From: Amoebophrya sp. A120
Taxonomy: Eukaryota; Protista; Dinoflagellata
Length of the DNA stretch: 64,000 nt
NCBI GenBank assembly: GCA_905178155.1
Contig: CAJINV010000004.1
Span: 4,876,619-4,940,618, forward strand
Direction of reading: 5' to 3'
Translations under genes and position numbers: made by a program
The notes under the pieces: generated by a model
The model's input: only the letters and a program-made list of their open reading frames with translations
What the model was told of the DNA's origin: nothing
Databases searched by the model: none
Shown here: positions 33,760 to 64,000 of the stretch, piece by piece
How the letters are laid out: each line of letters begins with the position of its first letter
Position numbering within the stretch: the first letter of the stretch is position 1

Positions 33760-35796
33760 CTAGTACTTAGCTGCTTTTGCCAGCACGGCGCAGATGGTGT
33801 CCATGTTTTTCTCCAGCACCTTGGGAAGCATGCCGGACTCTGCAAGCATCTGCGCGAGCGGATCGTTTTGGCCGTGAGGTCTAGGCTTTGCTTTGAACCG
33901 TTTCCGGAAGATGCGACCCATTTCCGGATTGCGGTATCCACCTGAAAAGCATCCTACTCGTAATATGGCATACAACAACAACATTGCTGCAGTACTGCAT
34001 GACAAATTTCCTTTCGCGCCTAAATGTAAATCAGTAGAACTAGCAAATACAAATTCACAATTTGACTTCCCCCCTTGAAGAAAGTTGCAATGCAAGAATC
34101 ACTACCAGTAAGATGCTCTTGCGGTGGATATGCGATTCGTGGTTACAACGGTTGCGTACTGGTTGTTGAGATTGATCGGCGCGAACAGCCGCGTACACGC
34201 ATCGAAGGGCTGCATGGAGGAAAGCTGCGGACGCTGCTTATGCAATACAAATTTCCCGCACATGTACAAAATGCATGACGAATTTCGCTAATTTGGAGTG
34301 TCAAACTTGTCATGCTAAACTAGGATCGAAGCCAAGTTTTGTCATGCAGAGACCGCGTCTGCACGTGTACTGGAAAGTTACTGTGGATACTGCTTGAAGG
34401 AATTGGCCTTCATGGACTCTATCAGACCGTCCATCAGCCCATCATAGGTCAGGTGCATGGGGTCGGTGGTTGTCAGAATCTCGACCAGTGAGGTAGTGAG
34501 GGCGCCGCCGCGCCGGCCGTAGCGGTCTTCGCCGCCGTCGGACGATGTGGCGTGGTCTTCGCAACCGGAAATCATCTGGTTTTTGGGTCAGTATTGTTTA
34601 TACGGATAGGGATGAAGTCATGTAGTACGTGTAGTACACGTTCCCGTTTTTTTAGAGATATTTTGTGCCTGTAGGTCGTCGTGTAGTGACACTGTCATAG
34701 CAGTCCTTATCGACTCTAGCTCTACTTGACCTGAAGATCAAGAAACATGAGAAGCACACTGTAAAGATTTGTTTATGTTTTACGCAAATATCCGGTCTGC
34801 AGAAGAAGGGGTTCGTTTCCTCCTGCCACTCATTGTTGTGCCTCACCCACTTCCACGGCAGATCCATAGCCGTCCCGCTGTGACAGGCGTCAATGATGCA
34901 GGTGAGGCTGACGCCTTCCGTATTCCGTGAAAATTGACCATCCCCATCCACTTTGTGCATGACAAACTACAGAGGACTCTACGCCTACCTCTATGGATGT
35001 TTTGCATGACAAACTGGATAGGGATGGTTAATCTTCAGGGGGTATTCCGGCATCCGCTGCACCAGCTTCTCGAAGATGATATCATCGGTGACCATGCCAC
35101 TGCGCTGAAAATCCAGTGGCAGGAGCGTGTCGTTCATGCCGTCTTCTTCAAACCCTTCAGGATCTTCCTGTTGCGACCCGTGTCCGGAGTAGGCCATGAA
35201 GAGCGTGTCGCCCGGCGCCGCGCCGGCTGCGAGCCAATCCATCTCACGCAGAATGTTGTCGTGGGTGGGGGGAGCTGGGGTTAGTGTCAGCAGGGAAGAG
35301 GAAGTAACAAGAAGGCATACTAATGCAGATGCAATAACGATAGCGACGCATAGGTAAAGGAAATTATAGACGATAAAAGTAAATGTGATTCCCATCATTT
35401 ATTTGCTCTTCTACGGACATAAGAGATTTCTAATTTGCGAAGCAACCAGAATCAATTACAATTGTTTGCTGTCAAATAAAACAAACGCATTGTACTTCCA
35501 TCCTCGGTCAAAACGTGGAGCGAGTTTGGGTGCCAGCCAAACCTTTCCGTGAGCACCGAGTAGATGTTGTGTACGTCATTGATGCACCCCTTCAACTCCG
35601 CTTTTGTTCCCCGGTAATTGATCCCAATCAGCAAGCCCTTGTAGCGGCCCGGCGTGCAGGATCGGTAGCCCTCGGTCCCGTCGAGAGCAGGGAGGGCGTG
35701 GACTCGCTTTCCAAGCGTTCCTTCGTCCCCGCTCGCGTCACTGTCCCCGTGGCCTCCACCTCCACCACCGCCGAGACACTTCATCAACTGTTTCAT
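33760..35796 (-). CDS. Metacaspase (caspase-like C14 peptidase)
   Basis: KGLLIGINY, LKGCIND, YSGHG (catalytic His), DACHSG (catalytic Cys), MISGCED, GGALT and KQRPQLSS. Contains canonical introns plus two TA-TIR elements. Confidence 0.9.
34239..34389. mobile_element. TA-TIR intron element family A (151 bp)
   Basis: TSD CTGCT on both sides; removal restores SFKQ-RPQLSSMQPFD; homologous to 61547-61700. Confidence 0.92.
34921..35044. mobile_element. TA-TIR intron element (124 bp)
   Basis: TSD TTCCG; 30-bp TIR with 24/30 matches; removal restores QRMPE-GVSLTCIIDACHSG; two GCATGACAAA motifs. Confidence 0.93.
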
Positions 35797-39624: not shown

Positions 39625-41819
39625 TCACTCCATCCACGTCCACTCCCCACTCAGTTCGAGCTGCAGCCCTTGCACCTCCGCTATGGGGTACTCAAATGTT
39701 ACATTCTCAACTGTTACGCAATCTGTAATACATGAATGGCAAAAGTGAAATGCAAATGGGGGACCTTGCGCGTCTTGCATGACAGATTTGGCAAAGAGTA
39801 TCAGCCTGCTTAGTCCTCTGGGAATTTGTCATGCTAGGCAGCTTGATCGCAATCGCATCGATTCTGATTGTGATTTTGCATGGCAAAGCATGCAACAGTT
39901 GAGAATGTAACAGTTGAGAACGCCATATCTGCGGAGATGCTCAGGGTTGCGGCGTGAAACGTGTCAAAGGTCCGCTGCACGTTGTTGTACTTCTTTTCGG
40001 TCTATGCATCACAAAAGTATCTTCGCACTTGTACTTCATGCATAACAAACCTGGTTCCCCAAATTAGTTTAGCATCACAAACTCCGTTTCAGTTTCTCTT
40101 ACTGGGGAGGTATTCTACCACGCAATTGCTACTAGCGCGATAGTACTTTCGCACAGGATACGATCAAGTCGTCGACAAAACTTCGCACTTCTTCGTCCGC
40201 GACTAGCCTGGCCTGCGACTCGTAAAAGTCCTCCAGGTATCAAGTGCAAACATGTGTAACTCTGAGTCTCAAAACCTCGAATGTGAAATTTGGGCATGAT
40301 GTTGGCTGGAACAACTGTAAGTGTGGCATGTGCAGCAGCAGCCAAGCATCATGACAAGCTTTCAGGCCAATTTCTGCTGCACACTGCGCATTTTTACAGC
40401 TTGCGTTTTCTTTTGCACGGCGAAGCACGCTCCTGCGCTTTTATCGTTGTTCATCAAGCAGTTCAGAATCAGACCTTGCAGAACTGCCAGACAACCAGCA
40501 TGTCAAGCTCCAGTTTCCCAGACTACCTGGCCATCATGTTTGCACTCCATACTTGATCCTCCGACCCGGGACTCGTTCCGTACGTGCCAACCCCGGCGAG
40601 GCCAAACAGATGGTGGCTATGCAATGCAAAAGTATCGTACTAGCATTGCATTACAAATTCCCGCAGCATTACAAATTGAGTTTGTAATGGTGATTTACGT
40701 TGAAAAAGATATTTGTAATGCATAAACGCAATTACTACGAGTGCGATACTTTTGCACAGGATAGTGGCTCTCCCCCGGCGAGTTGTTCAACATCCCACCG
40801 TACTGCAGCAGCGGCGACCCCTTCAGCAACGGTGATTGTTTCAGCAACTTCGTGGTGCCGCTGTTCGGATGGTTGCTGCGCTGCTGTTTCAGGTACTGTT
40901 GCGCTTTCACCGCCCGCGCCTGGATCCGTTCCGGGATGGAGGCGGTTTGAAATTCCTGGTTCGTGTTCAGCGCCGCCTTCCGCCGCAAGTCCTGGGACCG
41001 CTTGCGACTGGGGCTCGGGCTCTGGTGCTGACCACCGATCATGGTGCCAAGAAATTTCGCGGTCGGGCTCGGACTCTGCTCCGCCAGCTCTAGCTGCACG
41101 CCGCAGTAACTCGACTGGTCCCGCTCGACGAGACTCGGGTCTTGCGCCAACAAAATCTGCTCCGCCGGCGTCAAATGTTGATCTTGCTTCGGATTTTTAC
41201 CGTGCTTTCCCTTGCCCTTGTTCAATGCAGTTGTAGAACTAGAACTAGTACTCGCTCCACTGTGCAGCGCCGCCCTTGCAGCTGCTGACGAGCCGTGGTT
41301 CCGCGTGCTTGTCGGATTCGCGCCCGGCTTTTGGTTGTGCACAAAGGCGGACTCCAGATCGGACTGCATCTTCCGAAATTCCTTGTACATTTTCCCGAGG
41401 CTGCGGTCCGGATCGACTTGTCTGGACGAGCTGCTTTTTGATGTACCCTTCGCACTCTGCAGCAAAGAAAGCTTCAGCGACGCGTTCTGTGGCTGGTTAC
41501 CGACAGCACTCCCAGCCGCTGCAGAAGTAGAAGTTGCTCCTCGGGTCGCGAGGAAGTTGCTGGCAGCAGTACTCGAGGATGATGATTTTCCTCCATTTGT
41601 ACTAGACGAAGCGTTACTCAACCCCGTTGCGGAACGCAAAATCGACTTCGTTCCTGGTTTAATACCATCGGGCTGCTGCAACGTGGAGCTTTGTCCACCG
41701 CTTTCCTCACCGGACGTGACGGACTGCTCGTGGGCATGAATCCCCTCCCGGTTGTAGTTGAACAACTCTTGATGAAAGTTGCTGAGTTCCTGGTCAAATC
41801 CTGTGCAAAAGCATCGCAC
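39625..41819 (-). CDS. Hypothetical protein (3' part) interrupted by four TA-TIR elements
   Basis: Sequential removal of element + 5 nt gives one frame: ...PGESH-HLFGL...PGSED-LEDFYESQARL...DDLI-EKKYNNVQRTF...ISA-EVQGLQLEL. Confidence 0.65.
39682..39927. mobile_element. TA-TIR intron element family F (246 bp)
   Basis: TIR built of TTCTCAACTGTTACA units; TSD TCCGC/TCTGC; same ends as 59127-59383. Confidence 0.88.
40003..40160. mobile_element. TA-TIR intron element, diverged family B (158 bp)
   Basis: TATGCATCACAAAAGTAT ... TACTTTCGCACAGGATA; TSD CGGTC/CGATC; frame restored. Confidence 0.8.
40238..40551. mobile_element. TA-TIR intron element, family D-like (314 bp)
   Basis: TATCAAGTGCAAACATG vs rc TATGGAGTGCAAACATG; flanks CCAGG/CTTGA decayed, but the +5 rule restores the frame. 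Confidence 0.75.
40618..40763. mobile_element. TA-TIR intron element family B (146 bp)
   Basis: TSD GTGGC; TATGCAATGCAAAAGTATCGTACTAG ... CGAGTGCGATACTTTTGCACAGGATA; close relative of 61310-61459. Confidence 0.92.
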
Positions 41820-41972
41820 TAAGCGTGTAAAGGTAAACGCTGTTCCTGGATCGATGCCAGCTCTGCTGCTTTTTATTTTTTCACTAGCTTAATCTGCACC
41901 ACAAATTTCATAAGCAAAATTCCTCATCCGAGCATTATTCCAGTACACTTACACGATCTACCATGCAGCTTG

Positions 41973-44900
41973 TTAAGCTTTTGCCATGCATAGATCAGGT
42001 GACACGATGAACGAGGTCCCGCCGGTCCCGGTCTCGCTTATGGATGTGTCAGAGTTGAAATCGACAAATCGACAAAGTTGAAATGATTTGTCATGCTAAA
42101 CCGACCGAAACCACAACACAACCTGTAAGGGCACCTCACCGCAGATGGTTCGGCCACCAGGTCGTGGAGTCAGGCGGACCGAAGCCATCACCATCATCCT
42201 CGGGCACATGATCCCACTTACGCCAACTTTTCCTTACTTTCGCACACAGTCCTCACTTCGCCAACATGCGTTTAGCGTTCGCCAACGATCCTTACTTTGC
42301 GCCAACAAACCATACTTTTCGCCAACAAGTCCAACTTTTCGCCCACTGAGTACGTTTAACGTTCGCCAACGATCCTTACATTGCGCCAACGGATGCGTTT
42401 ATTGTTCGCCAACAAACCTTACTTTTCGCCAACAAACCAACTTATTGCCAACAGAGTACGTTTAACGTTCGCCAACGTACCAACTCATTGCGCTCACGGA
42501 CTGTGCAGGAGCCTACCAGGCAAACTGCTATAAGGAAGCAGCAGCCTGCAGCTGACTCCATGCATACGAAAATTTGCTATTCGGAACCCAACGGCCACCG
42601 CAGGCACAAATACAGTCTGCGATGAGGTTTAGAAAGGTCCGGTAAAATTAGGAGGTGCAGGTCCGGGTTAATGCACCTAACGCCGCGCAGTCAGGTGTCG
42701 CCAGAGAGTATAATCGCCGCAGATATGCTGGGGCTCGGGGCACCAGGAAAAGTTTTGACAGATGAGAGCGGGCCGAGAGAACTGGCAGCCTCAACGGCCT
42801 TTGACGCATTGTATCAGTGTCATGACCAACACAAAATCACAGCAGGACCGCAGAATACAAACGATGCAAAGGCCAGACGCCCCGAGGGCGATAAAGAGGA
42901 AAAGGCGGTCCCGCCAACAAAGGCAAAATATCAGGGACAGCCGAGGCGCTACTACCACCTGTCTCAGTTCATCTGTCAATTGGTAGTTACATAGTGGTGC
43001 CCGCGCGCGTGTAGCCGCAGGTGGCTGAAGGCTCTTGCGCGGATGAATGCAAGCACGAGGACGTCGTGCAGAGAGCAGGGCGCCGCTGAGGCCGGGACGT
43101 AATTGTAGAGAGAGATGCCGCTCTAAGCACAGCGCGTCGTTCTCAGCGGTCGGGTGCCGCGGGTTATCGCACTCGCCATAGCGCCGAGACGTTGACGACC
43201 ATCTGCTAAACGTCGATGGTGTGGTGATGAGACGGGGTTGGAGGCGTGGACAGTCCCCGACTGGCTACGGATCGAGGATGAGCACCATGACGACAGGGAC
43301 AGCGAGCCTCTGCGAGAGTTCGCAGAGATCGGATCGAGTCGAGTGAGTGGGCGCTCCGTCAGGACCGCTCTGTCACGAGATTGACAAAACCTGCGGCACG
43401 CCCCCCCCCGAAGGGCAGGGTTAAGAACCTTCGCCGTGCTTGCCCTGGATCGATCCGCCGGTAGCTGCAGACCCTAGTCCCGGATTATAGCGACGCCCAT
43501 CTTGGACTTTATCTCGTTTGTTTTTGCCCGGGGTGACCAAGCGCTCCGAAAACGAAAGATCGATAGCGAGATGCGAGTTTACGTATGAGCGTGCTGCACC
43601 GGATTGCCGTAGATCTGGATCGAGAAGGAGCTACCGAGTCAAGGACGGAGAGTCGAGCACTCCGAAAACGAGAAACCGAAAATGAGATACGAGCTTTTCT
43701 TTCACGTGAGCGCTCTGCGCAGGCTGTGCTAGTAGGTCAAGATCGAGAAGGACCCACCGCGTCAAGACCGAAGAGTCGAGCTTTCCGAAAAACAAACGAC
43801 CGACGTCGGGCACTCCGGAGACACAGGAGTGCCGTAGATCAGGTTCGAGAAAGAAGTACCGAGAAACCGCAAGCGAGGTCCGAGTTTGTCATGCATGTGA
43901 GCGCTCTGCGCTGAGCTTCCTGCGCGGGACTGCCGAGGATCAAAAACAGTTTGGAACTTCGAGAACTTTTTGAGTCAGAGTGCTAAACCCGCCGCGCTGT
44001 CCACGCGATTATGCCGAAGTCTCCTGTCGAAAAGCGCCAAAGTTACCGACTTCGCTCGGCGGGTTAAGGACAGCATTTGCCACACAGGTCGCAGCCATAC
44101 AGCGTCCTTGCATAAAATGCGATGCAAAAAGTGACTCCATTGCAAAGGACGCAAGGGAGGCAGATTATAGTCCTGGTAAGGGTCAAAAGTTGGACTGCTG
44201 ACTAGCATGACAGAAGGCAGCTCTTTTGCCCTAAACCGCATGACAGACTCGCTTCCAGGACCGGGAAAATTTGTCATGCACCGACTACAAACTGCAGGTC
44301 TAACTGGCATGGGCATCCATTTTATGCATGACAAATTATTTCAACTTTGTCGATTTCAAACCTGACACTCCCATATCGCTTTCCTCCAGCTGAATGCGCA
44401 CCGTCTTCTTTTTACTAGCGGAAGCGCCACCGTTTTGCTCCAGCAGCTGGATTGGTGACAATGGTTGGTCTTTAGAGGAAGTTGTTGGAGAGCCAGTTGA
44501 TTTTCTCGCCATCCAGCTATTGCGCTGCTGCTGCAGGATGGCCTGCAGAACCTGCTCCGCCTCCTCTTGGCGGCGTAGCGAGTCGGGACTCAACTCCGGA
44601 TCGCTGTCAATTGGGATCGCTGCTGTGCCGGCGGTATTGGTCGGATCTGGTGGAGGTTGGAGTTCAAATTTGTCACTTCTACTCCTCTTGTTCATTACAA
44701 ACATACGAAAGATGGCAATGCGATCTTTTATGATGCTGAAAACACTAAACGTAAATCTGAAGCTGCCCACCGACGACGTCCTAGGTGCTGTGCTCGATGA
44801 AAGAACAAACAATACCCGTGGCTCCTGGATAAAAACTCCCCTTCTGTTTCTCCCGTTCCCGTTCCAGGAGTCGCGTCTGCTCCAGGTTGCGCAGGTGCAT

Positions 44901-45699: not shown

Positions 45700-45890
45700 T
45701 CCGGGTTTGCGCCGGATTTGTCCCGGGTTTGCAAATATTTTGTAAATATTTTGCAAACATTTTGCTATTTCCTGACAGCTAGCGCCGACCTGTAATGGTC
45801 GATATCTTAGCGCCGAAAAAGCACCCGAAAAAGTCGGGCGCTTTGCAAAATATTTGCAAAATATTTTGCAAATCCGAAGCAAACCCGGGA
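45700..45890. repeat. Inverted-repeat block of TTTGCAAAATA-type units
   Basis: TCCCGGGTTTGCAAATATTTTGTAAATATTTTGCAAA ... TTTGCAAAATATTTGCAAAATATTTTGCAAATCCGAAGCAAACCCGGGA. Confidence 0.7.
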
Positions 45891-47458: not shown

Positions 47459-48110
47459 TTTGATGTCTACTTTGCAACTTACGGAATTTCCATTTCGTTT
47501 TTCTCGCCCACCAGACTATTTGAAACCCAATGGAGAATCGATCTCCCGGCTCCATTCAACCAATAACTCACACAGATACGGAACTAAATTTTCCACGTCA
47601 GATATTGATGCTGACAACGACTTAGGACACTGAGCTGTCAATTACCTCCTCTGCTTCTCTGTGCTGCTGCTGCTTCTTCTAGATTTGCAAAAGTAGGACA
47701 ACAATCGCACCCTCCTAATACTGTAAAGTGGCGTCTTCGCTCTTCTACTTGTTCTAGCGGGCGCTTACAGCTGCGTTTGCTCTCGTTTTTGTTTTCTTGC
47801 ACAGCGTGCTCCCCACGCAACTCAATCTCAAACTGTACTAGGCCGCCCGCCGCCGCATTTCAACGCGCCGCCGCCTTGCGGCAGCATCTCTGCCCCCTGT
47901 TCGTTCCTACGCGTTGCTGATATGCTGCTAGGCGGCTCGTGAAGGGTCTCACGACGCTAGATTCGTCCGTATCAAAATTTCCTGGCGTGACCACATCCTT
48001 CTGCGCGCATGATGCAGATGGATCTATGATAACGATAAGTTGGTTGTAATTTCTGGTGTTTCTCCACCGACGAAAATGAAACGCGAACGATTTCATCACA
48101 AACTCATGCT

Positions 48111-48973
48111 TCACGATATCCCGGCTGGTCCCGAGAAGTGCATGGGCTCCTTCATGATGACATCGTGGTTTTCGGCGATTAAACGACTTGTATCCACAAG
48201 CGGACGTGATGCTGCACCCGTGCCAAAAATCCCGGATCCTCCTGTCACTGGCGCCACACCGCTCGACGACGACCCACCAACCCTATCGGCAGAAACCGAT
48301 CTTCGTCTGTTCTCGGAAGTTGTGCCGCCACCAACAGGAACAAACCCTGAGGACGCCGCTCCGAGCTGCAGTCGTTGCGTTGCGGTATCTACGGTAGGTG
48401 GATTTGGTTTCTGCGTCAGCCCGTAGAGCAGGGGCAGCTTCGCGTTCGGATTACTGGAGTGGTGTTGTGTTTGCTCGGCCCGTGTCACGTTCGTCACATC
48501 CGCTATTTTCAGTTCGTCTGCCAGAAACCGTCGATCAAACACCCGCTGTTCCGGGTGTCCGCTTTCGGACAGAAACACGGAAAGCGTGTGGTACTGCTGA
48601 TTGTACCTGACAATGTGGGTTGCACTCATGTGAATGCTGTGTATGGCTATGGGAAGAACAAGAAAGTTGAAATACTTCCTGATCGGATCTCAAAAGTACA
48701 AAGAATAAGAAATGCGCATCATCTGCTTTACGCCCTGTCTGCAAGATCAAATGTATCAAGACAAGAACTACAACCGCGATCGCAATACTCCAGGTATTCT
48801 CGTATCAATTCGTTGATCACCAAGTTTGCGGAGGGAATGGCAGGTCGCTTCGCGCTCTTTTCGTCCAGCGAATGAAAAATTTCAGACTGCACTTTTGCCT
48901 TCAATTCGTCCAGGATACCCTTGCGCTCCAGGCTCTCCACAAGAGCCTCCTTCAGCTCGAGAAGGGACGCCAT
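48111..48973 (-). CDS. CEP20: Centrosomal/basal-body LisH protein FOR20 (FOPNL/CEP20)
   Basis: ELKEALVESLERKGILDELKAKVQSEIFHSL, NLVINELIREYLEYN, HTLSVFLSESG and LPLLYGL; GT-AG intron 48788..48607. Confidence 0.85.
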
Positions 48974-50043
48974 AGTTTTCCTTTTCTTTAGATTTCGGTT
49001 TGTTTTGTAGTTGGTGCTTGATGAACTTGTCCTCGCACTCAACTAGGAAAAATTCATTTGCAACAACCCACCGGACTCGAGTTCATCTCACCCAGCGACC
49101 ACGTTTTGGTATCGTACCTGCGCACAACATCAACCTCAAGCTATCTCACTTTCGTTCAGCTGTCGTACTGTGCGGTAAAGTTGTACTCCTCAATGGAAGA
49201 GTATCGCGCTTTCTTTGCTGCCGAAGAACAGCAACACGGAGCCAACCAGCACTACCTTGGACAATCATGGTTTTGTCAACCACAACCTTCCTCGAGATTG
49301 CCCTTTGCAGTTCGTTTCTTGTGGTCACGCGACACGCTTTTTTATCTTTTTGTGGGAGTGCTCTGCGACTGCCACGCAGGCACATTCCTCCGTGCATCGA
49401 GGCTTCCTAATGTGGAAATCGATTTGCTGCAACAAATTTCCACGCGGTCAACAGCAGCGAGAGGACTATTCTTTTACGTGTGAAACTTGACAAGCGTCTC
49501 AACATTTAAACATGGAGTCTATCTTCATTTTTGATACAAAAACGCTGAATCAAATCGGGTCACGCTGAGACTCTTGCTTCATTTCAAACTCAGAGGTGAT
49601 ACCACGTCCACATAGTGAAAAGCAAAAAACGCGTACAGAGGCTTTACTTTCTTTTGATGGTAGTCCTCGACTCAAATAGCACAGCACTCGAGTTCTTTTC
49701 CGAGAAAAGCTGGCATCTTTCTGTTGCGACAGAAGCATCAGAAGAAGCCGCTATGATGAAATTGCAAAACCTACCTCTAGAAGTTTGGCCCAGATGTGTT
49801 CTGTAGCCATCGTCGTGTTCAAAAATCGTAAGAAGATATGATAGGGTAAAGTAATCGCTTAGATGCGGAATTTAGTGTACATACTGAAAATTATGCGTTC
49901 TTCTAAAGAGTGTGCAAGAATCTAAAATTTTTCCGATTTTTAGGTGGTAGATCTAGGAATAGAAACACCACTTGTGGTTGTCCTCTCCAGTTGCTTTATT
50001 TTCGACGACCAGCCCCTTTCGGACCTCCGCCTCCATGTTCCTC

Positions 50044-53196
<3,153 letters not shown>

Positions 53197-53854: not shown

Positions 53855-55594
53855 TCACCTCCTTCTGTCTCTTCCTTTGCCTTTCCCCTTACCACCTTTG
53901 CCACCGGATCCTTTGCGCTCCGCTGTGCGCGTCGCCTCCGCTTCGTTGATGAAGAACAGTTGCGGTTCAATGCGCAGCAACACGCGGAGAGTCTCACCGT
54001 CCTCGCCGCCAGTACGACTGTGAGGGGTTGTGACTAGAAACTCACTCATCATCCCGTAGGGAGTTTCTTTCCAGGTCAGATCTGGGTGAAGTTCGCGCAG
54101 GATGAGTTTGTAGATTTCGCACACGTCCGTCGGCTCCTCGCTGCAGTACGCCCTCTTGCGAATGCATTTCGGGCAGTACTCGGGCAAGTGCTGGCCGTGT
54201 GGATGGTGGTCCCAAAACACCTCCGCCTTGATTGCTTCCACCGGTTCCTCGCATTTCCTGCAAATCTGCTTCGGCTTTTCCGTTTCGCTCACGTTTGCCC
54301 ACTGCTTCCACCGGGAGGCGGACGACGAGTTTTGATGTTCCGTACTGCAGTACCACAGCGTGTGCAGGCACCCGCACTTCTTTTTGCGGTCCCGATCACA
54401 CCCACATGTGCTGATATTGTCATCGTCATCATAGGTCGGGTCTTCATCTTCGTTTTCACTTTCGACCGACGTGGCGTCACGTAGATTCAAACGACGCACA
54501 CTGTTGATCAAATCGCGGTCCTCCTCGTTTTCGTAGTCCGTCGCCAATTTCGGATTCCAGTACCCACCGTAGCACTTCACGGTGTCCCAGCGGTATACCG
54601 CATCCCGACCGGGGCCACCTTCCTCGGACTCAGCCACACCGCAATCGCATTCGAATTCGGCGTACAATCGGTATTCCCGGAAATTCACGAGCTCGGGAGG
54701 ATCCCGTGTTTCTGCTAGCTGACACAGGAATGCACTTCGGCGTACCGGAACAAGCGGCGGCTGGAGCAAAGGATCTGCTCCGCCAGCAGAGACTGGGGGC
54801 GAGGACGGACCTGCACCTGCCATAAAATCCTGTACGTCCCTGCTCTGCAGGCCGTTTCCAAACAGCTTCGAAATCAACACCTTGTGCTTGATAAGCGACT
54901 CCGCACAGTCTCGGTTTAGCAGTTCGTTCGGCGGAAGGCTAAATACACGAAGTTCTTGCTGCAAATCGACGGTTGGCAGGTCAACCACATCATTGCCGCC
55001 GGGGTAGTGCAGAGCGCTGGGGCTGGCGTCGAACACGCATACCTCCACGATGTTCTTGGATTTGCCAGTGATGTAGCCCGGAATTTCCAGGGGCGGCTCC
55101 TTCGCAGCAGATTTGTGGCCGCGCATGCGCCGGTGCAGCCGGCTGACCTCCGCCCGTCGCAGCCTTTCCTTTTGACTTGCAGCTCCAGCGCTGTCGTCGT
55201 CCGCAACCCGGCGAATTTCACCGAGGACCCTGTCCGATTCGTATCCGCCGCCTCCACGAAGGGGCTTGCGCATCTGCAGCGCCCCGTTGCTCAATCCGAC
55301 GCCGCTATTGTCAATCACGAGATTAGCAACGTAGTCGTTTTTGCCGCATTTTTCCAGCAAAACGTGCGTCGTCTCGGCGTTGGCGGGATCGGCGCGCACT
55401 TGCAAAACCCTGTAAGTGGCCGGGTGGCGGCTTCTATCCGCGTCCCACAACACTTGGATTTTTTCGGCTGCGCGTGGAATAAAGGATGCCATATTGCTTG
55501 CTGTCGTGATTATGAAGACCGCGACGGTCGTAACTCTGACCTCCCGTGCCCGTCTGATAATGATATGAATGTCAATGTATTGAATGACAGACAA
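53855..55594 (-). CDS. Hypothetical protein with Cys/His-rich C-terminal region
   Basis: 579-aa intronless ORF; CGC, CGCLH, CRKC and CPKC clusters (possible Zn binding). Confidence 0.55.
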   Translation of the reverse strand: MSVIQYIDIHIIIRRAREVRVTTVAVFIITTASNMASFIPRAAEKIQVLWDADRSRHPATYRVLQVRADPANAETTHVLLEKCGKNDYVANLVIDNSGVGLSNGALQMRKPLRGGGGYESDRVLGEIRRVADDDSAGAASQKERLRRAEVSRLHRRMRGHKSAAKEPPLEIPGYITGKSKNIVEVCVFDASPSALHYPGGNDVVDLPTVDLQQELRVFSLPPNELLNRDCAESLIKHKVLISKLFGNGLQSRDVQDFMAGAGPSSPPVSAGGADPLLQPPLVPVRRSAFLCQLAETRDPPELVNFREYRLYAEFECDCGVAESEEGGPGRDAVYRWDTVKCYGGYWNPKLATDYENEEDRDLINSVRRLNLRDATSVESENEDEDPTYDDDDNISTCGCDRDRKKKCGCLHTLWYCSTEHQNSSSASRWKQWANVSETEKPKQICRKCEEPVEAIKAEVFWDHHPHGQHLPEYCPKCIRKRAYCSEEPTDVCEIYKLILRELHPDLTWKETPYGMMSEFLVTTPHSRTGGEDGETLRVLLRIEPQLFFINEAEATRTAERKGSGGKGGKGKGKGRDRRR

Positions 55595-56575
55595 CAGAAA
55601 TGATTACAGTAAAATTTAGCCGATACATACCAACATTTGTACGCAGAAAAAGAGTTCTGCGACTCTAACTCTTGTAAAAAGCGGTGCTCGTGCTGATATG
55701 TTGCCCCGTTTGTTCCACCACATCTAACTGCGCACACTCGTCTTAAATTCTGCTTACGTATTCTTATACTTGTTGACCACCTGCCACTGCCTCTTGATCT
55801 GGAATAATGTCTACACGAACCACTCCAACTCGAACTTAAAATGGAACGAAAGATCATCACAGGTTGCGCCCAACATGAATCCTGATCATGCCGATGTTGA
55901 CGAAGTTATTGCGTACCTATGTAATATTACTTAACGAGATCTCTATCTTTTCGACATTCACGACATTGCTTGCCAGAAAATACTTTCGAAGAAAAGACTT
56001 CTTCCGCCCCCACAGCCAATGTAACAAATTGCATATCTTCACTTTGTTCAAACCCTTCTACATTGTAAATCATCTCGTCCACATAGTAGTTCATCATTCA
56101 CGGACGGTCTTGTCGTTATCATATACATACGATGCACAAGAACATCACATCATTTACTTTAGTACTAGCAGGTAGTGCTGCCTGCATACGAATTAGTTTT
56201 TCTTGTTTGAGCTTAGAATAAACCTAGTGTTAGCGACACTGACAAAGAGTTTGATCAGAAAAATAAGAATTATGATACATCAGATACAAACAGAAACAAT
56301 CTCACGTTTCGAAGATGCTGATACTGATAGATACATACTGAAGCAGATAAATCTGTAGTTGTACTAGCATGGCGACAAGCGGCACTATCGGACCGACCAT
56401 TCAAGTAGTAGAATTCTAATGCGTTTTCCAACCTAAAAACTAAGTTAATATTCAAATTCTCGTGCGTATTTGTAAAATATACCGCTGCAAGAAATCTCAA
56501 ATCAGTGCGATGGATTTTTCCGTTCTTGCGTCACGTGCTACGTGACGCAAGTGGTGATAAAGTTAAATGCAAAAC

Positions 56576-59500
56576 TTACTTCTGTACTATAGTCTCCTCC
56601 ACTTCTTGTTGTGCCTCCACCTTCCTGTTTTTCGGTTTTATTGAGAGGAAAAATCCCCCCTCCCCATATCGAAAAGGTATGTTTGCAAAAATTTGTGTTG
56701 CGGATTTGAGGTCACAAATCACATTTGTCTTGCAAGAAGGCAAACCCAAAGAATCCGCTGCCTTAAGGAGGCGATTTGTAATGCTGTTTCACCTACATGG
56801 CAGGCCTCTCTTATGCCAAGAGCCTACAACAAAACACCCCTACGCAGGCTGAGGCTTTGCCTGTAGTGCCTCTGTGCAATACAAAGCTGATTTGTGGTCA
56901 CAAATCAGCATCACAAATTTCCGTTCTGATATGGGGAGGGGGGATTTTTCATTCTGATAGGTTTTGCGGCCACAACATAGCGAAACCCCTGGTCGCCGAG
57001 GAACACCGTGTGGAACACGGCCGCTGTTCCCGGTACGACGAACATCAGGACTGTAAATACCTGCCCTATCCAAGTGAAGAACATACAACTCCCCGCCCTC
57101 GTGGTCGTCCCTCTCGTTCTTGGTTTGTCATGATACAAAATGCGGCCTAATATTCTTTACGCATTGCGTTGCCTCTTGGCACTGTTTGCATGACAAGATC
57201 TAGCAGGAGCAGCTCGGACTACGACTACAGCAGGTACTACACTCCTGTCCAGTAGATTTCTTCTCGTCATGGTGCAAAGCCTGTATTTTTGCAGCTGTCG
57301 CGTACTGTACTAGTACAACTTAGTGTTATATTTTATTTTTAATTGCTGTTCATACAATAGTACAAATGAAGGGGAACATCAAGGGGAGCTGTAATTTTTG
57401 CACTTTCATATGCCCCCAGACGGCGACATTGAGCAGAGTCGAGAGGGAAAGCACGACGGTCGAGAGGCATGTCAGTTTGCGAAATGCGCACGCGGTGAAA
57501 GTAGGACTTTCATTTTTGAGGCCGCTGGTGTTGTGCTCCACTTCTTCTTTGTGTTCTCGCAACTGGTTTTTTTCGTCCTGCTGTTCCGCCTCCGAAGCGG
57601 AAGAAGCGCTGGTGGAAGGAAGCATCGTGCTCCGATTGTCGTAGAAGTCCTTGGCCGCCGCGAGCTGCTCTCCGACGTACGGCGCAGCGCCGGCCGGAGA
57701 TGCAGGCGGCAGCGCGAGGAGGACAGGAGGCCCTGCGAGTACCGGGTTGTGGTGCCGATCCAGTACGATCCGCGTCTCCATGTGGTCGACGAACTCGAGC
57801 TCAACACCGCCGCAGCAGAACAAATAGCCCCATGGATGACCGGAGAAACTAGCACACGATGACGATGAGTGTTCTACTTCATCTTCCCCAGCATCAGCTC
57901 GCTCTGTTCCGCCTCGCTGCTCTACTGCTGTACTACGTCGATCTTGTCCCATCATGTTCTTGCCGCTCGATTTATTACTTTCCACATTGTTGTTCTTCCC
58001 GGTGGTTGACGCGCTGGTGCCGACGTTATCAGCGACTTCTTTCGTCTGTTGTAGTTCTTCTCCCGCCGCCGATTTTAAAATTCCCTGGTGCAGCTGCTTT
58101 TGTTCTAGTTGCCAGACAGGAAAGGCTTTGCCCTCTTTCGTATTTTTCAACGCGTACACGAGCAAGGACACGTAGCACATGGTGATGAGGACAAAGGTGA
58201 AACCCAACGCAAGCGAAGTAATCGTACCAAGTGCAAAAGTATCGTACTCGTAGTAATTGCTATCGTGCATGACAAATATCTCTTTTTAGGTGAAATAGCA
58301 CTACGAGTTGCATTTTTGTTCTTGAAAAAATTTGTGATGCAATTTATACTAGTACGATACTTTTGCAATGCATAAAGCGGCAACACTTGCAACAACAGCG
58401 GCAGACCGCAAGTGTGAAGAAACGCGACGGCGCCGGGAACCATGCCCATCAGAATGCACAGGCCGAGGAGCATGTCCATAACCAGCCTGTCCCACGCGAT
58501 TCGAATCAGGAGCAGGTGGGTGAGGACAGAAGTCTTGAACAGTTGCCAGCTGCTGGTCGTCGATGAAACAACACCCGGTGGTCGCACGGTGGGCGACTTT
58601 CTGGACGTCGAGGACAGCAACATGCGAAGTTGCCACCCCGCTAATCGTAGCTGGTTCAGGACCAAAAAGCTCACTTCCCCGATGCCCTGCAGGTGCCGCC
58701 GCGATTGCGTGTACCGTGCCGCTACGTTCGCAAAGTACGCACTCATCCGGGAGGACGAAGTAGATCCTTCGCTCTCCACGATAAAACTAGCAAACGGTAG
58801 GTAAATCGCGACGACTTTGAAGGCCGGCAGGGGAAACCGCAACATTGTGGGATCGTTATTGTAGCAGAGAGCTGCAGATGTTGAGGAGGAAGAAGCTACA
58901 ACTCCTGCGGAAGCTGCAACAGGAGCACGACGTCCACCTGGCGCAGGGGCACCAACAACTCCTCCGCAATGCTGTATGAGGGCGGAGGATTCATCTTGTT
59001 CATCAGGGTTGTTCACCAGATGATGATCCACCTGATGTTGGTGCTCATGATCTTCAGGATCGCCAGGAGCTTCTACTTCGAGCGACGTAGACGTATGTAG
59101 CCCCTGGAGGTTCCACAGTTCGCGGGTATGGCACTCTCAAACGTTACATTCTCAGCTGTTTTTACACGATTAGACGTGCAAAATGACCATGAGCCACCAG
59201 ACGAAGATCAAGCTGCTTCGCGTGACAAATTATCAAAGGGCCAAACAGTATCTAAATCCTCTGTGCCAAATTTATATATGATGCAAGCTCATTTCTTGCA
59301 AGCTTGCCCCTTTCATCCGTACTGCTCCTTTAGCGTCACAAATCCACGTAACAGTTGAGAATGTAACAATTGAGAACGCCATAGCGGGTGAGCATGCCTT
59401 GCAGAAAAGTGTGGAGGTCCTCGGAGATGACGTCGGGAGCAAAGCCGCCCATCCGCTCGACAAGTCGATGCGTCGCGGTGTAGGATATGAAAGCCTCACC

Positions 59501-62500
59501 AGGTTGGAAATCCTCAAAGTGGAAATAATTTGTAATGCAAAAAACGACTCCAGGTAAAGCGGCATTTGTAGTCCGCGCATGACAAATTTCCCGGGCACTT
59601 CTTAAAGCATGTCTGTCATGCAGGTTAAGGCAAGGGGGTGCCCTTCTGTCGTGCTAAGCAGCACTCCAATTCTTCACCCCTGGCAGGACAATAGTCGGCC
59701 TCCGTTGCGTCCTCTGCAATACAGTCTTTTTTGCGTCGCATTTCATGCATCACAAATCATTTCCACTTTGAGGATTTCCATTGTTCTGAGGCTTTCATAT
59801 AGGAGCTCATCAGCGGTCGAGCGGAGGGGGAGACCAGACCGAGCTTGTAGCGCTCGTACATCCTATCACAGGAAAAAGTGTTAACGTTAACGGTTTTCAC
59901 AGATTGCAGTCATGCATCACAAATGTAGCCCAATATGCATGCTATGCATGACAAATTCTGACACGTCTTGTGATGCATTTCAGCATCACAAATTCCGTTA
60001 ACGTTAACACTTTTTGTTGTGATACATCCAAGCGCCTGCCGCGCCGACCTTGCTCAAGCCGGGGACGCGGTCCCAGTTGCGCAGCGGCTCCTGCACCGCT
60101 TGCCAAAACCTCCACGCACGGTCTGAGGCCGGCTCCTGCAGTGCCTGAAACGTCACGCAGGGAAAGTACTGCCGATGAAACAGCGTGTCAGCGTCGCAGT
60201 TGGTAATGAAAGTGCGGTCCGGGTGCCACCGCAGTAAGCTACAAGAACTTGTTGGAGAAGTTTGTTCGTTTTCAGCTGCACCAGGACCGGATGATGGTGC
60301 TCCATCGCTTCCATACGTGGAGGAGACGCTGTTCGTTATTTTTGTTCTAATTGTATTACTCCAAGTTGTTCGATGCCAATGTTGATTAAATTTCTCTCTC
60401 TCTTTATTTCCGCTGCAGCAACTTTTGTTCAGTACAAGCTAATCATTGTTCTCAAGAACATCAACAAGCAGTAGGGAACGCCTGCTTGTCGTGCAGCTTT
60501 TTGTTAGAAATAGATACTCGATCATGAAGCTATCCACGCTTTCATCGCGCATAAAATAAAATCATCGAAGCATCTAACTATTATCATTTCATTTCAAACA
60601 GATTCCAATTAGTACCTGCTGCCATTGTTCAAGTTCATCATGGTCCTCGTCTTCCCAAACTGCCCCTTCTCCTCACGACCGGGCAGCAGCTTTTCACATT
60701 GCGTTGGATCGTTCAGAAAACGCTGCAGTTCTAGCCACGCTGCCTGCAATATGACAGTGCACAACTCCCCCTTCCCCCCATTTGTGATGCAAAGCCTTGG
60801 TCCGGTCCCATGTGGCACTGTTTGCATGACAACTTTCGGAAGCCCAAACAGTACTACATTCGGCTCGTGAAGAACTTGTCATGCATAGGATCCAAATGCG
60901 TTGATGTTTGTATTGCTGCTCATGCCATGCAAGTGAGGGGGAGGGGGACTTGTGCACTCTCATATGCACATTTGAACTCTTGCCGGCCACCTCGCCGGGA
61001 AATTGGTTCTCTTTGTGGTAGCTGAGAATAATCTTCGCGAACTGGTGGCCGTGTCTGCCTTTTAGCCTTTCCGCTTTTTCGACTGCAGCCGGGCCTTCGC
61101 GCTCCTCCATGGCCAGCACGAGCACCATGGGGAGAGCTACAACTGGATGGTGTAGTGCTTCGATTTGGTGGTCATCGTCGCATGGGAGCTGCTGGCTTTC
61201 GTTTTCATCTTGTTGTTCCGGATTTTTTTCTTGTAGTTTCTTGCTCATCGTCCCGGCGGTGAAGTGATTTTTGTCCAGGTCCTCGCTCATCTGCTGACTC
61301 TTGATGTCGTATGCAATGCAAAAGCATCGTACTAGTATGAATTGCATTACAAATTGGCTTCGCATTACAAATTGAGTTTGTAATGCGGATTTGCCCTAAC
61401 AAAAAGATTTGTAATGCATAAATGCCATTAGTACGAGTACGATACTTTTGCAGTTCATATGTCGTGCTTCAACACCAAGTTGTTAATCGTGTCGGATACT
61501 AGGTCGCAGTCTTCCTTGTAACAGGGGATGATCACCGCATGCAGCGTATGCAATACAAATTTCCCGTACATGTACAAGATGCATCACAAATTTCACGAAT
61601 TTTGAGCGTCAAACTTGTCATGCGAAACTAGAAGCGAAGCCAAGTTTTGTCATGCGGAGACCGCATTTGATGTACGTGTACGGGAAATTTACTGTGGATA
61701 CAGCAGTCCGTCTTGCAATGCCTTCCTCTCTTTGCTGGAGTGCACAAATTCTCCCAGTTTGCGTTCCCATATGACACCCTCAGAATGGAAATCCTCAAAG
61801 CGGAAATAATTTGTGATGCATGAAATGCGACACCAAGAAGACCGTATTGCAGAGAACGCAATGGAGGCCGACTATTGTGCTTCTATGGGTTCAGAATTGG
61901 ACTGCTGATTAGCATGAGAGAAGGGCACCCCTTTGCCTAACTAGCACGACACCAGACACGTTCTGAATGACCGGGAAATTTGTCATGCGCCGCTTAGAAA
62001 TGGCGCTTCAACTGGAGTCGTTTTTTTGCATTACAAATTATTTCGATTTCCACTTTGAGGATTTCCATTCTGAGGCTGTCATATCCCAGTCGACTTTCAG
62101 CCACGCGTCCATCTTATCAAATGCAATTATGTCTGTGTCTGGAAGGTTGCAACTTGTGATGCTATGTTTCGACTCTAAAAAGATTTGTATTGCATGACCA
62201 GCAAGGGGAGCCCAGTTTTTGCTACGTGGGGAGGGCATTTGTCATGCGGAGCAGGCATCAGGAAGCCTTCTAAAAATCTGTGATGCTATGTCCCGCATTC
62301 CAGACCTCATGGGTCATGGCAACCCTGCGTGACAAACTTGTATTCTTCCAGACCCAGACATATTTGCATTTGATACATCTTCCACAAGCACATCGCCGCG
62401 CCAACAGAAATATCAAATGCAAAAATGTCTGGGTCTGGAAGATTCGGGGAGTTTGTCATGCACAACTGTACATGACCCAAAATGCCTGTGATGCATGCTG

Positions 62501-63733
62501 TAGCATCACAGTTCTCGCAAAGCCTTGGTAATGCCTATTCTGCATGAGAAATGCCCTCTCCGAGTGGCAAAAATTCAAGCAGCTTTTGCTGCTCATGCAA
62601 TACAGATTTTTCTATCGTCTACAGGTAGCATCACAAATCCCATTCTTTCCAGACCCAGACATTTTTGCAATCCATACGTGATCGTCGAAAGCATAAAGAC
62701 CACAAAGAACTGACAGGGTAAAATGGCATACTCGAACCACAACCGGGGAAACGCGTCGAATTGGTAGGTGAGGAGGTGTATCAAGTGTAAAAATGTTTGG
62801 GTCTGGAAGAGTGCAGACTTGTCATGCACATTTTCCATGACCCATGAGGTCTGGAGTGCGGGACCTAGCACGACACATTCTGTGAGGCCTCTACCATGCC
62901 TATCCTGCATGAGAAACCGCCTCCCAACTTGGTCAAAAGTGAACAGCTTTTGGCACTCATGCAACACAGATTTTTGCATGCTTCAGATTTACCATGACAA
63001 GTTGCCACCTTCCAGACCCAGACATTTTTGCAATGCATAAGGTAGATGCCGAGGTAGGTCAACACGAAGATCAAATACACGCAGAGCGGAACGGTCCGGG
63101 TATCAAATGCAAATGTGTCTGGGTCTGGAAACTTGTGATGCTGGGTGGCGTATCATGAGGAGGCAACAAGTGCTGGTGCAGCATGACAAGTTTCAGAGCT
63201 TCCAGGTGTTGCCTATTCAGCATGACAAACCACGTTTCTGCATGGCAGAAAAGTGAGGCTCTTGGGTAACGTGCATGACAGATTTAAGAGTCATGCCAGA
63301 CAAGCATGACAAACATGCATTCTGCCAGACCCAGACATTTTTGCAGTTGATACCGGGCAAGCAATGCCAACGTCGTTCCGGAGGAGACGGATTGGGGAGA
63401 GAGAAGTTCTTGTCCTTGATGTAGCTGTGGTTGGTGACCAACTGCATGATGTTGAGCGTGGTCATAGTACTCAACATGTTGCTTGAGCTTGCTCTCCTGC
63501 ACCACGCCTGCAGTTGATGTACTACTTTGTGGGGGCGTGGACGTCGCATAGAAGTCCGCCTTCGACGTTGTGCCCTGGCTGCGACGCCGGAGGTCCACCT
63601 TCGACGTTGTGCCCTGTTTCATCTTCTGTTGGGATGGTCGTGAAGAACTTTGCAGCTGCCAGAAGTGCGTCGACGTATTTTCAATGCGACTGCGAGGACG
63701 AGCGGTAGGAACTACGGCAGGCACAGGGCGCAA
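56576..63733 (-). CDS. Membrane glycosyltransferase family 2 protein, split by 14 TA-TIR elements and one GT-AG intron
   Basis: Reconstructed frame contains HAVIIPCYKED, LAMEERE, PGEVAGKSSN, TNCDADT (DxD), VISEDLH (catalytic ED), ARYTQSRRH (QxxRW-like), TM helices at both ends and YVVAAKP near the C-terminus. Start uncertain. Confidence 0.85.
56639..56959. mobile_element. TA-TIR intron element (321 bp)
   Basis: TSD GGTTT; TIR core GAAAAATCCCCCCTCCCCATATC; restores VAAKP-KNRKVE. Confidence 0.92.
57067..57410. mobile_element. TA-TIR intron element, family H-like (344 bp)
   Basis: TSD TGCCC; shares TGGCACTGTTTGCATGACAA with 60750-60964; restores AVWGQ-VFTVLM. Confidence 0.85.
58225..58374. mobile_element. 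TA-TIR intron element family B, reverse orientation (150 bp)
   Basis: TGCAAAAGTATCGTACT TIR; TSD AATCG/AAGCG; restores QVLP(L/I)-TSLALG. Confidence 0.9.
59127..59383. mobile_element. TA-TIR intron element family F (257 bp)
   Basis: TSD GCGGG; restores GMLTR-ELWNLQ. Confidence 0.92.
59486..59799. mobile_element. TA-TIR intron element family C (314 bp), reverse orientation
   Basis: TSD TAGGA; TIR core TGGAAATCCTCAAAGTGGAAAT; restores LMSSY-TATHRL. Confidence 0.93.
59864..60024. mobile_element. TA-TIR intron element family G (161 bp)
   Basis: TSD CATCC; TIR TATCACAxxAAAAAGTGTTAACGTTAACGG; restores GAWM-YERYK. Confidence 0.93.
60750..60964. mobile_element. TA-TIR intron element family H (215 bp)
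   Basis: TSD TGCAA/TGCAC; TIR TATGAxAGTGCACAAxTCCCCCT; restores GKSSNVQ-AAWLEL. Confidence 0.92.
61310..61459. mobile_element. TA-TIR intron element family B (150 bp)
   Basis: TSD TGTCG; restores VLKHD-IKSQQ. Confidence 0.93.
61547..61700. mobile_element. TA-TIR intron element family A (154 bp)
   Basis: TSD CAGCG/CAGCA; homolog of 34239-34389; restores DGLL-HAVIIPCYKE. Confidence 0.92.
61770..62083. mobile_element. TA-TIR intron element family C (314 bp)
   Basis: TSD TCCCA; restores KVDWE-RKLGEF. Confidence 0.93.
62115..62375. mobile_element. TA-TIR intron element family D (261 bp)
   Basis: TSD CATCT; TIR TATCAAATGCAAxTATGTCTGxGTCTGGAAG; restores CLWKM-DAWLK. Confidence 0.93.
62411..62676. 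mobile_element. TA-TIR intron element family D (266 bp), TSD decayed
   Basis: Clear family D TIRs; flanks AGAAA/CGTGA; the +5 rule restores MLSTI(S/T)VGAAM. Confidence 0.88.
62779..63039. mobile_element. TA-TIR intron element family D (261 bp), opposite orientation to 62115-62375
   Basis: TSD AGGTG/AGGTA; restores LGIYL-LTYQF. Confidence 0.92.
63101..63352. mobile_element. TA-TIR intron element family D (252 bp)
   Basis: TSD CCGGG; restores LLAR-TVPLCV. Confidence 0.93.
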
Positions 63734-64000
63734 ACTTCAAGAGCGTCATGATGTAGATTTTCCCCATGGTAGTCTTCAGATGCAGATCGTCAAATAAATC
63801 GCACTTATACTTGATTGAACTACGACACAACGAACCTGAGGGGGATCAGATTCGTGTGACCTGCTTGAACAAAACATACGTCTCTACTACTTTTTTAGAA
63901 GAAACATTTTTCCGCAGAACTGCTGCAGGGTCAACTTCTGCTTCTGCATCCAATTCTACTCGTTTTCGCCGAAGAGTAAGGTTCATACATCGTGAAACGA

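Follow-up and report, generated by a model that had tools for sequence, protein, structure and literature searches.

Non-canonical introns in Amoebophrya and related systems

In Amoebophrya about two thirds of the introns are without GT-AG ends. The introner elements of strain A120 were described by Farhat et al. (2021; PMC7789003) as many families of sequences of about 250 nt, whose inverted repeats start with TAT, continue with 7 variable bases and then carry at least 3 A, and which have non-canonical splice sites and direct repeats of 3-5 nt at the exon/intron borders. A terminal inverted repeat (TIR) transposon origin has been reported for these introners, together with single genes that hold tens of introns (Gozashti et al. 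2025; PMC12130899). The nonconventional introns of Euglena are also alike, in their paired ends with a longer unpaired 3' overhang, in the presence of GT-AG introns alongside them, and in their suspected derivation from MITEs and use of separate machinery (Nomura et al. 2025; PMC12501133).

A 64,000-nt stretch of Amoebophrya sp. A120 DNA (the window) was analysed, and the locus studied within it is crowded with elements but otherwise an unremarkable instance of the A120 introner introns already described. A first-pass annotation had not linked the locus to this system; the A120 introners and the gene model had already been published. The likeness to the elements of Farhat et al. extends to the organism, the annotation of the gene, the inverted repeats, the border repeats and the lack of GT-AG ends. 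Added here are a strict 5-nt repeat, the occurrence of both orientations in coding frames, and a 10-nt motif across families. The published repeat is 3-5 nt long with an undefined border, whereas the repeat found here is strictly 5 nt with the upstream copy kept, and both orientation independence and the shared internal motif appear to be absent from the main-text description of that study (PMC7789003).

The gene and its fourteen elements

The host gene lies on the minus strand of the window and is split by 14 elements and one GT-AG intron. Its main features are as follows:

56011..63939, minus strand: extent of transcription according to the X3 contig (the X1 contig covers 56034-63892); lengths as predicted
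56576..63622, minus strand: coding span of 16 exons and 1,089 aa (CAD7945728.1 / GSA120T00000796001), predicted GT2-type membrane glycosyltransferase
60329..60615, minus strand: canonical GT-AG intron of 287 nt, from the sequence; X3 pieces 60616-60744 and 60023-60328 are contiguous in the record
62084..62109, minus strand: shortest exon, 26 nt, by reconstruction; the spacer 62084-62114 is 31 nt
62376..62405, minus strand: 30-nt exon, residues 142-151, inside a 206-bp cross hairpin predicted for elements 3 and 4; the spacer 62376-62410 is 35 nt

Excision of each element with one repeat copy, and of the GT-AG intron, left 1,089 stop-free codons, and the reconstructed protein (P0001) matched the deposited Amoebophrya sp. 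A120 protein CAD7945728.1 at every residue. Position 63622 holds the first ATG, while position 63733 merely marks the limit of the stop-free frame. The first-pass claim that the frame could be rebuilt by removing elements stood for all 14 of them, but the GT-AG intron must also go. The two short spacers were as claimed, with mRNA shares of 26 and 30 nt.

All 14 elements have TAT…ATA inverted repeats. They are given here in transcript order, without an assigned strand:

63101..63352: element 1, family D, 252 nt, repeat 5/5, cut after residue 90
62779..63039: element 2, family D, 261 nt, repeat 4/5
62411..62676: element 3, family D, 266 nt, opposite in orientation to element 4; the repeat matches at only 2/5, its copies differing at positions 2, 3 and 5
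62115..62375: element 4, family D, 261 nt, repeat 5/5
61770..62083: element 5, family B, 314 nt, repeat 5/5
61547..61700: element 6, 154 nt, repeat 4/5
61310..61459: element 7, family A, 150 nt, repeat 5/5
60750..60964: element 8, 215 nt, repeat 4/5, upstream repeat copy present in the contigs
59864..60024: element 9, 161 nt, repeat 5/5
59486..59799: element 10, family B, 314 nt, opposite in orientation to element 5, with which it is 82% alike
59127..59383: element 11, 257 nt, repeat 5/5
58225..58374: element 12, family A, 150 nt, repeat 4/5 with the mismatch at position 3, upstream copy carried by the contigs, inverted relative to element 7
57067..57410: element 13, 344 nt, weak inverted repeat, direct repeat 5/5
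56639..56959: element 14, 321 nt, repeat 5/5

Together the elements make up 3,420 nt of the 7,158-nt locus, in agreement with the earlier figures of 14 elements and about 3.4 kb in 7.2 kb, and the four family D copies are indeed adjacent. Single-linkage clustering gave nine groups; eight, in line with the roughly eight families first proposed, are obtained if 61547-61700 joins the 150-nt family through a 47-nt terminal match. Between 14 and 19 of the first 20 bases are complementary in every element, the transcript strand always starts with TAT, and AAA occupies positions 11-13 in nine of the 14. The flanking 5-nt repeat is perfect in nine elements, matches at 4/5 in four and at only 2/5 in 62411-62676. 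Families A, B and D are each found in both orientations within the gene. A census of the whole window returned 28 candidates, versus 0, 0 and 1 in three shuffles. In line with the first-pass annotation, neither the TrxR region (29900-33200) nor the CEP20-like one (47500-50200) has any element candidate, and both lack copies of the shared motif.

Transcript evidence and probable cut sites

The predicted spliced lengths of 4,152 and 4,082 nt equal the X3 and X1 contig record spans to the base, and every listed piece boundary in the two contigs agrees with the predicted splicing. Both contigs are without all 14 elements and without the GT-AG intron. They are assemblies of short cDNA reads from runs (X1-X4) classed as RNA only by the tool's guess, none of the runs that contain the locus being registered as RNA, and eleven X1 pieces and nine X3 pieces, small exons among them, were placed from record coordinates and not letter by letter. 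The deposited gene model was probably built on similar RNA data and is hence not independent. The raw RNA run X8 gave zero reads on the exons of the gene. In the DNA-like run X5, exon-element junctions were present at single-copy depth, and the depth of all element bins was far above single-copy.

These data bear on the idea that a transcribing nucleus eliminates the elements from its DNA, as ciliates do with internal eliminated sequences that carry pointer repeats. Ciliate pointer-guided excision keeps one repeat copy, a geometry resembled here, and the RNA nature of X1-X4 is a guess. However, the GT-AG intron is likewise missing from X1 and X3, whose contigs stop at gene-like limits, the element-bearing form is present in X5, and a heritable loss would be expected, as the parasite's nuclei become spores. 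Elimination from DNA is therefore extremely improbable.

No element had GT-AG or GC-AG ends at any of six registers (0/14); at the same registers an AT-AC reading is possible for one and a GA-AG reading for one. Wherever the repeat is imperfect the deposited protein agrees with the upstream copy (5/5), and for two imperfect repeats the contig pieces verify that copy, with 0 other letters. In two cases the imperfect repeat restricts the cut to its own last two bases or the TAT. The 5' cut probably falls at the TAT of the stem base or no more than 2 nt ahead of it, and the 3' cut 3-5 nt beyond the ATA, in a ruler-like manner. The Euglena N3-CDG signature, CDG at +4 to +6, is seen in one of the 14 elements at the cut-before-TAT register, a difference from the Euglena introns, from which the A120 elements are further set apart by their TAT…ATA ends and 5-nt duplications (PMC12501133). 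Special protection of repeat positions 4-5 was considered and rejected, as mismatches were uniform over 37 imperfect repeats (11, 8, 8, 5, 10; p 0.64 and 0.37).

A rewired, U1-less spliceosome, in which the terminal stem or a protein substitutes for GU/AG recognition, could make these cuts, though we put this at somewhat below even odds: A120 was reported to have nearly all spliceosomal proteins and U2, U4, U5 and U6, with U1 undetected in that survey (PMC7789003), and symmetric ends could present the same signals in either orientation. Yet the 3' cut would lie in arbitrary target sequence, no repeat position is protected from mismatches in the 37 imperfect repeats (p 0.64), and the same gene holds a normal GT-AG intron. 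There is an even chance that the catalyst is a protein nuclease-ligase system apart from GU/AG recognition, acting beside the normal spliceosome that removes the GT-AG intron.

Probable transposon origin of the elements

A further 334 elements from 141 loci were picked by their inverted ends alone. A perfect 5-nt repeat flanks 250 of them, repeat lengths of 3, 4 and 6-9 nt score at most 2%, and a 6-nt repeat occurs in none (0/334). A fixed-length target duplication, here of 5 nt, is shared with non-autonomous TIR DNA transposons (MITEs). The IS3EU superfamily has TAY…RTA ends and a 6-bp target duplication, and differs in this respect from the A120 elements. Among 187 elements with a called frame, family D stands in a 26:26 ratio of orientations relative to the coding frame. 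An internal 10-nt motif occurs across families in 309 of the 334 elements, at 8.9 per kb versus 1.1 outside. Thirteen of the 14 elements in the gene have near-full-length relatives in the 141 loci; none was found there for 57067-57410. We conclude with high confidence that the elements spread by DNA transposition through a trans-acting DDE-type enzyme, which likely binds them at the shared 10-nt motif.

Seven long candidates for an autonomous partner were found in the window and the loci. The Pfam scan covered the window candidate, where 7 of its frames gave no match, and no transposase came to light in the long elements. The family described by Gozashti et al. differs, with integrase-like frames between the TIRs, none of which were found in the long elements here (PMC12130899). 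Local hopping among the four D copies is disfavoured, since they are about 72% alike, versus 78-92% for relatives of each elsewhere. A depletion of close inverted pairs was also considered: in a small sample of five same-family pairs within 200 nt of each other, one was inverted.

The gene had been called an insertion hotspot. Its 14 elements do exceed the approximately 2.1 that published genome averages predict (Poisson 5e-8), but other loci carry 10-11 elements per 6 kb and genes with tens of introners have been published. In post hoc comparisons 13 of the 14 elements lie in the conserved protein core (binomial 0.004, circular shift 0.028) and none in low-confidence model segments (circular shift 0.045); the core preference did not replicate in 62 frames of other loci (p 0.11).

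The encoded protein

The motifs claimed by the first-pass annotation are kept as D410-A-D412 (DxD), E506-D507 (ED) and Q657-S-R-R-H661 (QxxR-type), and they align across homologues. The AlphaFold model (pTM 0.71) has its best Foldseek matches in BcsA, PcManGT and hyaluronan synthase (E 3e-4 to 1e-3); all five matches at E<=0.001 are GT2 enzymes, with low TM-scores. The protein is thus predicted to fold like membrane GT2 enzymes. It resembles the membrane-integrated GT2 group (PF13632-like; BcsA, hyaluronan synthase, PcManGT) in N- and C-terminal membrane helices, in the DxD, ED and QxxR motifs and in fold matches. QxxRW is the cellulose synthase motif, whereas the A120 protein has QxxRH; it also differs from GT2 enzymes in its long low-complexity inserts and in the result for P0001, where no Pfam family was found at E 0.1. 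Homologue P0003 passes PF13632 (28.8 vs 27 bits), P0002, P0005, P0009, P0015-P0017 and P0020 have Pfam matches below the cut-off, and P0010 and P0030 have none. Pfam scans of exon-sized frames gave nothing useful, and sequence searches against solved structures found no GT2. A homologue search with the whole protein yielded two proteins from a crowded result. Nearest relatives are 34-40% identical. An origin of the three largest protein inserts as exonised elements was rejected, because AT5 introns are 99.98% canonical and the AT5 homologue P0015 has inserts of similar size at the same anchors.

In a quick tree the sister branch is an intact A120 paralogue, P0002, with a branch length of 0.85 versus 1.34 for the studied copy, and two near-invariant family residues, W499 and D500, are substituted. 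Together with the documented skipping of reverse transcriptase at a hairpin plus short repeat (PMC2923612), this could suit a decayed P0002 duplicate whose spliced contigs are reverse-transcriptase skips over hairpins. Such a history is very unlikely. The 1,089 codons are free of stops, where neutral divergence of 5% would have produced about 6 (P about 0.002), even though divergence has reached 7 of the 70 repeat bases; 29 of the 31 near-invariant residues are retained; and the 14 elements and the GT-AG intron are missing together, including the element with a 2/5 repeat. An intact paralogue combined with neutral evolution of this copy had been named as grounds against a functional gene: the paralogue exists, and neutral evolution of the copy is unlikely. 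The proposal of a functional, selected gene is supported by these counts, by spliced transcript-like contigs in two samples and by identity to the deposited protein.

Predicted folding and cross-pairing of the family D copies

Equilibrium folding prefers cross pairing in all three D neighbour pairs, strongly in one. Element 62411 lies inverted to its neighbour 62115 and is 73% like it, and the joint fold of the pair (-290.1 kcal/mol, 206 cross pairs) is 76 kcal/mol more stable than the two apart (-213.6 kcal/mol). In stepwise folding each D copy forms its own stem, with 22-30 pairs and 0 cross pairs. Five of the 14 elements leave their first base pair open when each is folded singly on the transcript strand.

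Mis-pairing across exons had been suggested, with the 62115 left end and the 63352 right end as example; this duplex (-33.0 kcal/mol) is the second weakest among 12 D cross duplexes. On paper the idea holds for 62411/62115 only, where loss of the 30-nt exon would preserve the reading frame and the repeat is non-discriminating (2/5 either way). Real exon-skipped isoforms or circles, chiefly through loss of that exon, are nevertheless unlikely: by length both contigs retain all exons, though rare forms drop from contigs; stepwise folding favours the cognate stems; and the exon lies within a predicted membrane helix (H118-155) conserved among homologues. Three of the six possible D-D skips preserve frame, which is near chance.

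Proposed mechanism and significance

Very probably the locus is an intact, transcribed A120 gene for a predicted membrane GT2 glycosyltransferase, holding 14 DNA-transposed elements that are likely removed from RNA via pairing of each element's own ends. Non-autonomous inverted-end elements would have inserted as DNA, each leaving a 5-base duplication. During RNA synthesis the ends of an element would pair and guide the cuts, so that the element and one duplicate copy are removed. Because equilibrium folding prefers cross pairing for the three D neighbour pairs, this hairpin model needs a putative co-transcriptional step: commitment of each element would precede transcription of the next one, which would explain why the far stronger cross hairpin is ignored.

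The locus is useful for testing how Amoebophrya removes introns without GT-AG ends. Within 1.3 kb it combines both orientations of one family, a 2/5 repeat, 26- and 30-nt exons, and a competing hairpin, 76 kcal/mol more stable, that would preserve the frame if used, and it could separate equilibrium-hairpin, co-transcriptional and spliceosomal models. A more speculative and improbable possibility is that one element-derived protein binds the 10-nt motif common to nearly all families, moves the DNA elements and excises them from nascent RNA without the spliceosome, each being committed during its own transcription. At inverted copies around a tiny exon, such as 62411/62115, a delay would then flip the fold to yield an in-frame isoform without residues 142-151 of a membrane helix. 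If this were true, transposon pairing would generate alternative splicing.

Element content of the predicted glycosyltransferase gene

The region 56576-63733 contains 14 segments with inverted ends, all beginning with TAT on the minus strand and 13 ending in ATA (the other ends in GTA). They amount to 3,420 of 7,158 nt, in agreement with the first-pass annotation (14 elements, about 3.4 kb of a 7.2-kb locus), and clustering placed them in nine groups, slightly more than the roughly eight families proposed there: four of the elements belong to family D, two each to A and B, and the other six are singletons. The direct repeat beside each element is 5 nt long; it is perfect in nine cases, matches at four of five positions in four, and at two of five in one (62411-62676). 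A census of inverted-end candidates over the whole window returned 28, including four overlapping alternatives within the D cluster; three shuffled sequences gave 0, 0 and 1.

Excision of the elements, the downstream repeat copies and a canonical GT-AG intron at 60329-60615 yielded a frame of 1,089 codons from an ATG at 63622 to a stop at 56576. The gene can thus be rebuilt in frame as previously claimed, provided that the GT-AG intron is removed besides the 14 elements. A single-exon search retrieved a 1,089-aa protein of Amoebophrya sp. A120, deposited as CAD7945728.1 / GSA120T00000796001 and identical to the reconstruction, so the gene had already been annotated with this structure. Since the frame also survives removal of 2 or 8 flanking bases, it gives the number removed modulo three only; that this number is five follows from the direct repeat together with the RNA lengths. 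A short upstream frame with its own ATG lies at 63681-63845, in the transcribed 5' region before the main ATG.

Transcript evidence

Four sequencing runs, RNA by guess, contain 0.46-0.47 of the sampled words, near the exon share. Two RNA-guessed runs (X1 and X3), a raw RNA run (X8) and a DNA-like run (X5) were compared in detail. X1 and X3 each gave one contig, of 4,085 nt (depth 43.9) and 4,153 nt (depth 12.2), assemblies of a kind that loses rare forms; their spans match the predicted spliced lengths of 4,082 and 4,152 nt. The listed pieces, six for X1 and seven for X3, contained no other letters, and the unlisted stretches equal the sum of the small exons, which were inferred from lengths rather than read letter by letter. 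All 14 elements are therefore absent by length, and the full-length spliced transcript on which the first-pass reading depended is matched in length by contigs from runs taken to be RNA. In X5, exon-element junctions were present at a depth of about 45, and element ends reached a summed depth of up to 4e5. X8 had no reads on the exons of the gene. Hundreds of raw X8 reads at 61770-61883 and 59689 derive from a different family-B copy; these carry adapter-like sequence, presumably a template-switch adapter, at the position equivalent to 61877-61883 and continue into a single foreign flank. They look like abundant RNA with a 5' end inside the element, whether from a promoter, a cleavage product or a reverse-transcriptase stop.

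Homologues and selection

Homologues of the product (P0001) include the A120 paralogue P0002, proteins from AT5 and A25, and others. P0002 (1,783 aa) carries an additional PF04488 domain, a second, DxD-type sugar-binding domain, and a quick tree of 28 rows placed P0001 and P0002 as sisters with AT5 P0015 next. Pfam gave no match on P0001; the homologue P0003 passes. Matches to the predicted structure (pLDDT 67, pTM 0.71) are weak but point consistently to cellulose synthase, PcManGT and hyaluronan synthase. Of 31 residues that are invariant or nearly so in a 116-row alignment, P0001 retains 29 and deviates at W499 and D500. Seven of 70 repeat bases have diverged, and 5% neutral change would be expected to produce about 6 stops, yet 1,089 codons run to the stop. 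Of the claim of a selected, functional gene, the expected stops and the retained residues argue for purifying selection; the function, as a glycosyltransferase, is predicted.

Position of the cut

In none of six equivalent registers does any of the 14 elements have GT-AG or GC-AG ends; one can be read as AT-AC and one as GA-AG. The deposited protein agrees with the upstream copy at each of the five imperfect repeats, and the contigs confirm this copy at elements 58225 and 60750. Judged by the deposited protein, the repeats of 58225 and 62411 place the 5' cut at the TAT or no more than 2 bases ahead of it, so that the 3' cut would fall 3-5 nt past the ATA, in arbitrary target sequence.

Possible mis-pairing among family-D copies

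Cross duplexes between D copies frequently equal the cognate ones in strength. The mis-pairing suggested as an example in the first-pass annotation does not: the duplex between the ends of 63352 and 62115 (-33.0 kcal/mol) is weaker than both cognate stems (-38.6 and -43.6). Strong competition comes from the inverted pair 62411/62115, whose joint fold reaches -290.1 against -213.6 kcal/mol apart, with 206 cross pairs enclosing a 30-nt exon; loss of this exon would preserve the frame. Joint folding gains just 5.0 and 0.6 kcal/mol for the two remaining pairs of adjacent D copies, and cross pairs number 0-1 in seven pairs of unrelated neighbours. Element-by-element folding in transcription order, a crude proxy, gave each D copy its own stem. 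Both contigs, which drop rare forms, retain the 30-nt exon by length, so the main product cannot be accounted for by hairpins at equilibrium alone; presumably the elements are committed early, or a protein guides recognition of their ends. A close inverted same-family pair was also seen in metagenome locus L050 (2770-3459), its joint fold 72.6 kcal/mol below the separate folds, around a 167-nt exon.

Copies in metagenome loci

The family-D end pattern matched at least 142 stretches of metagenome contigs, and 141 loci (400,676 nt) were analysed. Among the matches listed, these contain 334 elements, picked by inverted ends only, of which 250 have perfect 5-nt repeats, 48 match at four of five positions, 16 at three, and 20 at two or fewer; none has a 6-nt repeat. 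Frame was called for 187 of the 314 listed elements with at least three repeat matches, and family D among them is oriented 26:26. Mismatches in the listed loci are even across the five positions. A degenerate 10-nt motif, found first in this gene's elements (53 matches in 5.2 kb of element against 17 in 58.8 kb outside), occurs in 309 of the 334 listed elements, pointing either way. Insertion phase in the listed loci is uneven (60, 88 and 39 of 187, p 6e-5); in this gene it is 7, 1 and 6. At repeat position 5, 8 of 10 mismatches among the matches listed fall at third codon positions, a small, post hoc sample hinting that both repeat copies may be read there in these loci.

Element density

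Published averages predict about 2.1 elements per 3.27 kb of coding sequence against the 14 seen (Poisson P 5e-8, presuming every element to lie in coding regions). The proposed insertion hotspot is borne out to that extent, but among the matches listed L067 and L079 have 11 and 10 elements per 6 kb (loci chosen for having an element, overlapping loci unmerged), and the portions consulted of Gozashti 2025 (PMC12130899) report tens of introners per gene. Thirteen of the 14 elements lie within the alignable protein core; this signal is weak and post hoc, and it was not replicated in the listed metagenome loci. The TrxR and CEP20-like regions are element-free, as had been noted.

Other features in the window

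Further elements in the window
42039-44375: TAT…ATA element of 2,337 nt with a perfect 5-nt repeat
41797-41992: element with 3' end ATT instead of ATA; in-frame removal joins the flanking frames
17246-17535, 23970-24324, 33935-35044, 39682-40763, 50239-50392: nine further elements from the census

The nine include two three-element clusters, each about 1.1 kb. The final 267 nt of 42039-44375 resemble family B (92.5% against a copy in L054) and the rest has no Pfam match. Since removing this element with its neighbours leaves 561 open codons, it is probably an introner of unusual length. Clusters of the 10-nt motif at 18325-18458 and 22592-22660 suggest more decayed copies. A thioredoxin-domain frame (31884-33131) and the adjoining thioredoxin-reductase frames (29924-31924) share a strand and are either neighbours or a fusion. 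Directly downstream of the gene, 53855-55603 is a single 582-codon frame with a Cys/His-rich end and no Pfam match. A tandem array of a 47-nt unit with an inverted copy, plus a short palindromic array, occupies 20-279 and 45736-45863.

Relation to published introners

The elements were compared with the accessible portions of PMC7789003, PMC12130899, PMC9860276, PMC2923612, PMC12005148 and PMC12501133. As described in such portions of Farhat 2021 (PMC7789003), the A120 introners are exactly the same class. The fixed 5-nt length, orientation or motif may be contained in Figures S19-S25 or Table S7 of that paper or in the Gozashti 2025 datasets. Within a search coverage that most subscription journals lie outside, no paper was found that deals with this gene, with exon skipping between introners of Amoebophrya or with the chemistry by which they are spliced. 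The elements are a real feature of a known system, in a gene annotated before, and the value of this gene is as a compact natural test for the splicing mechanism.
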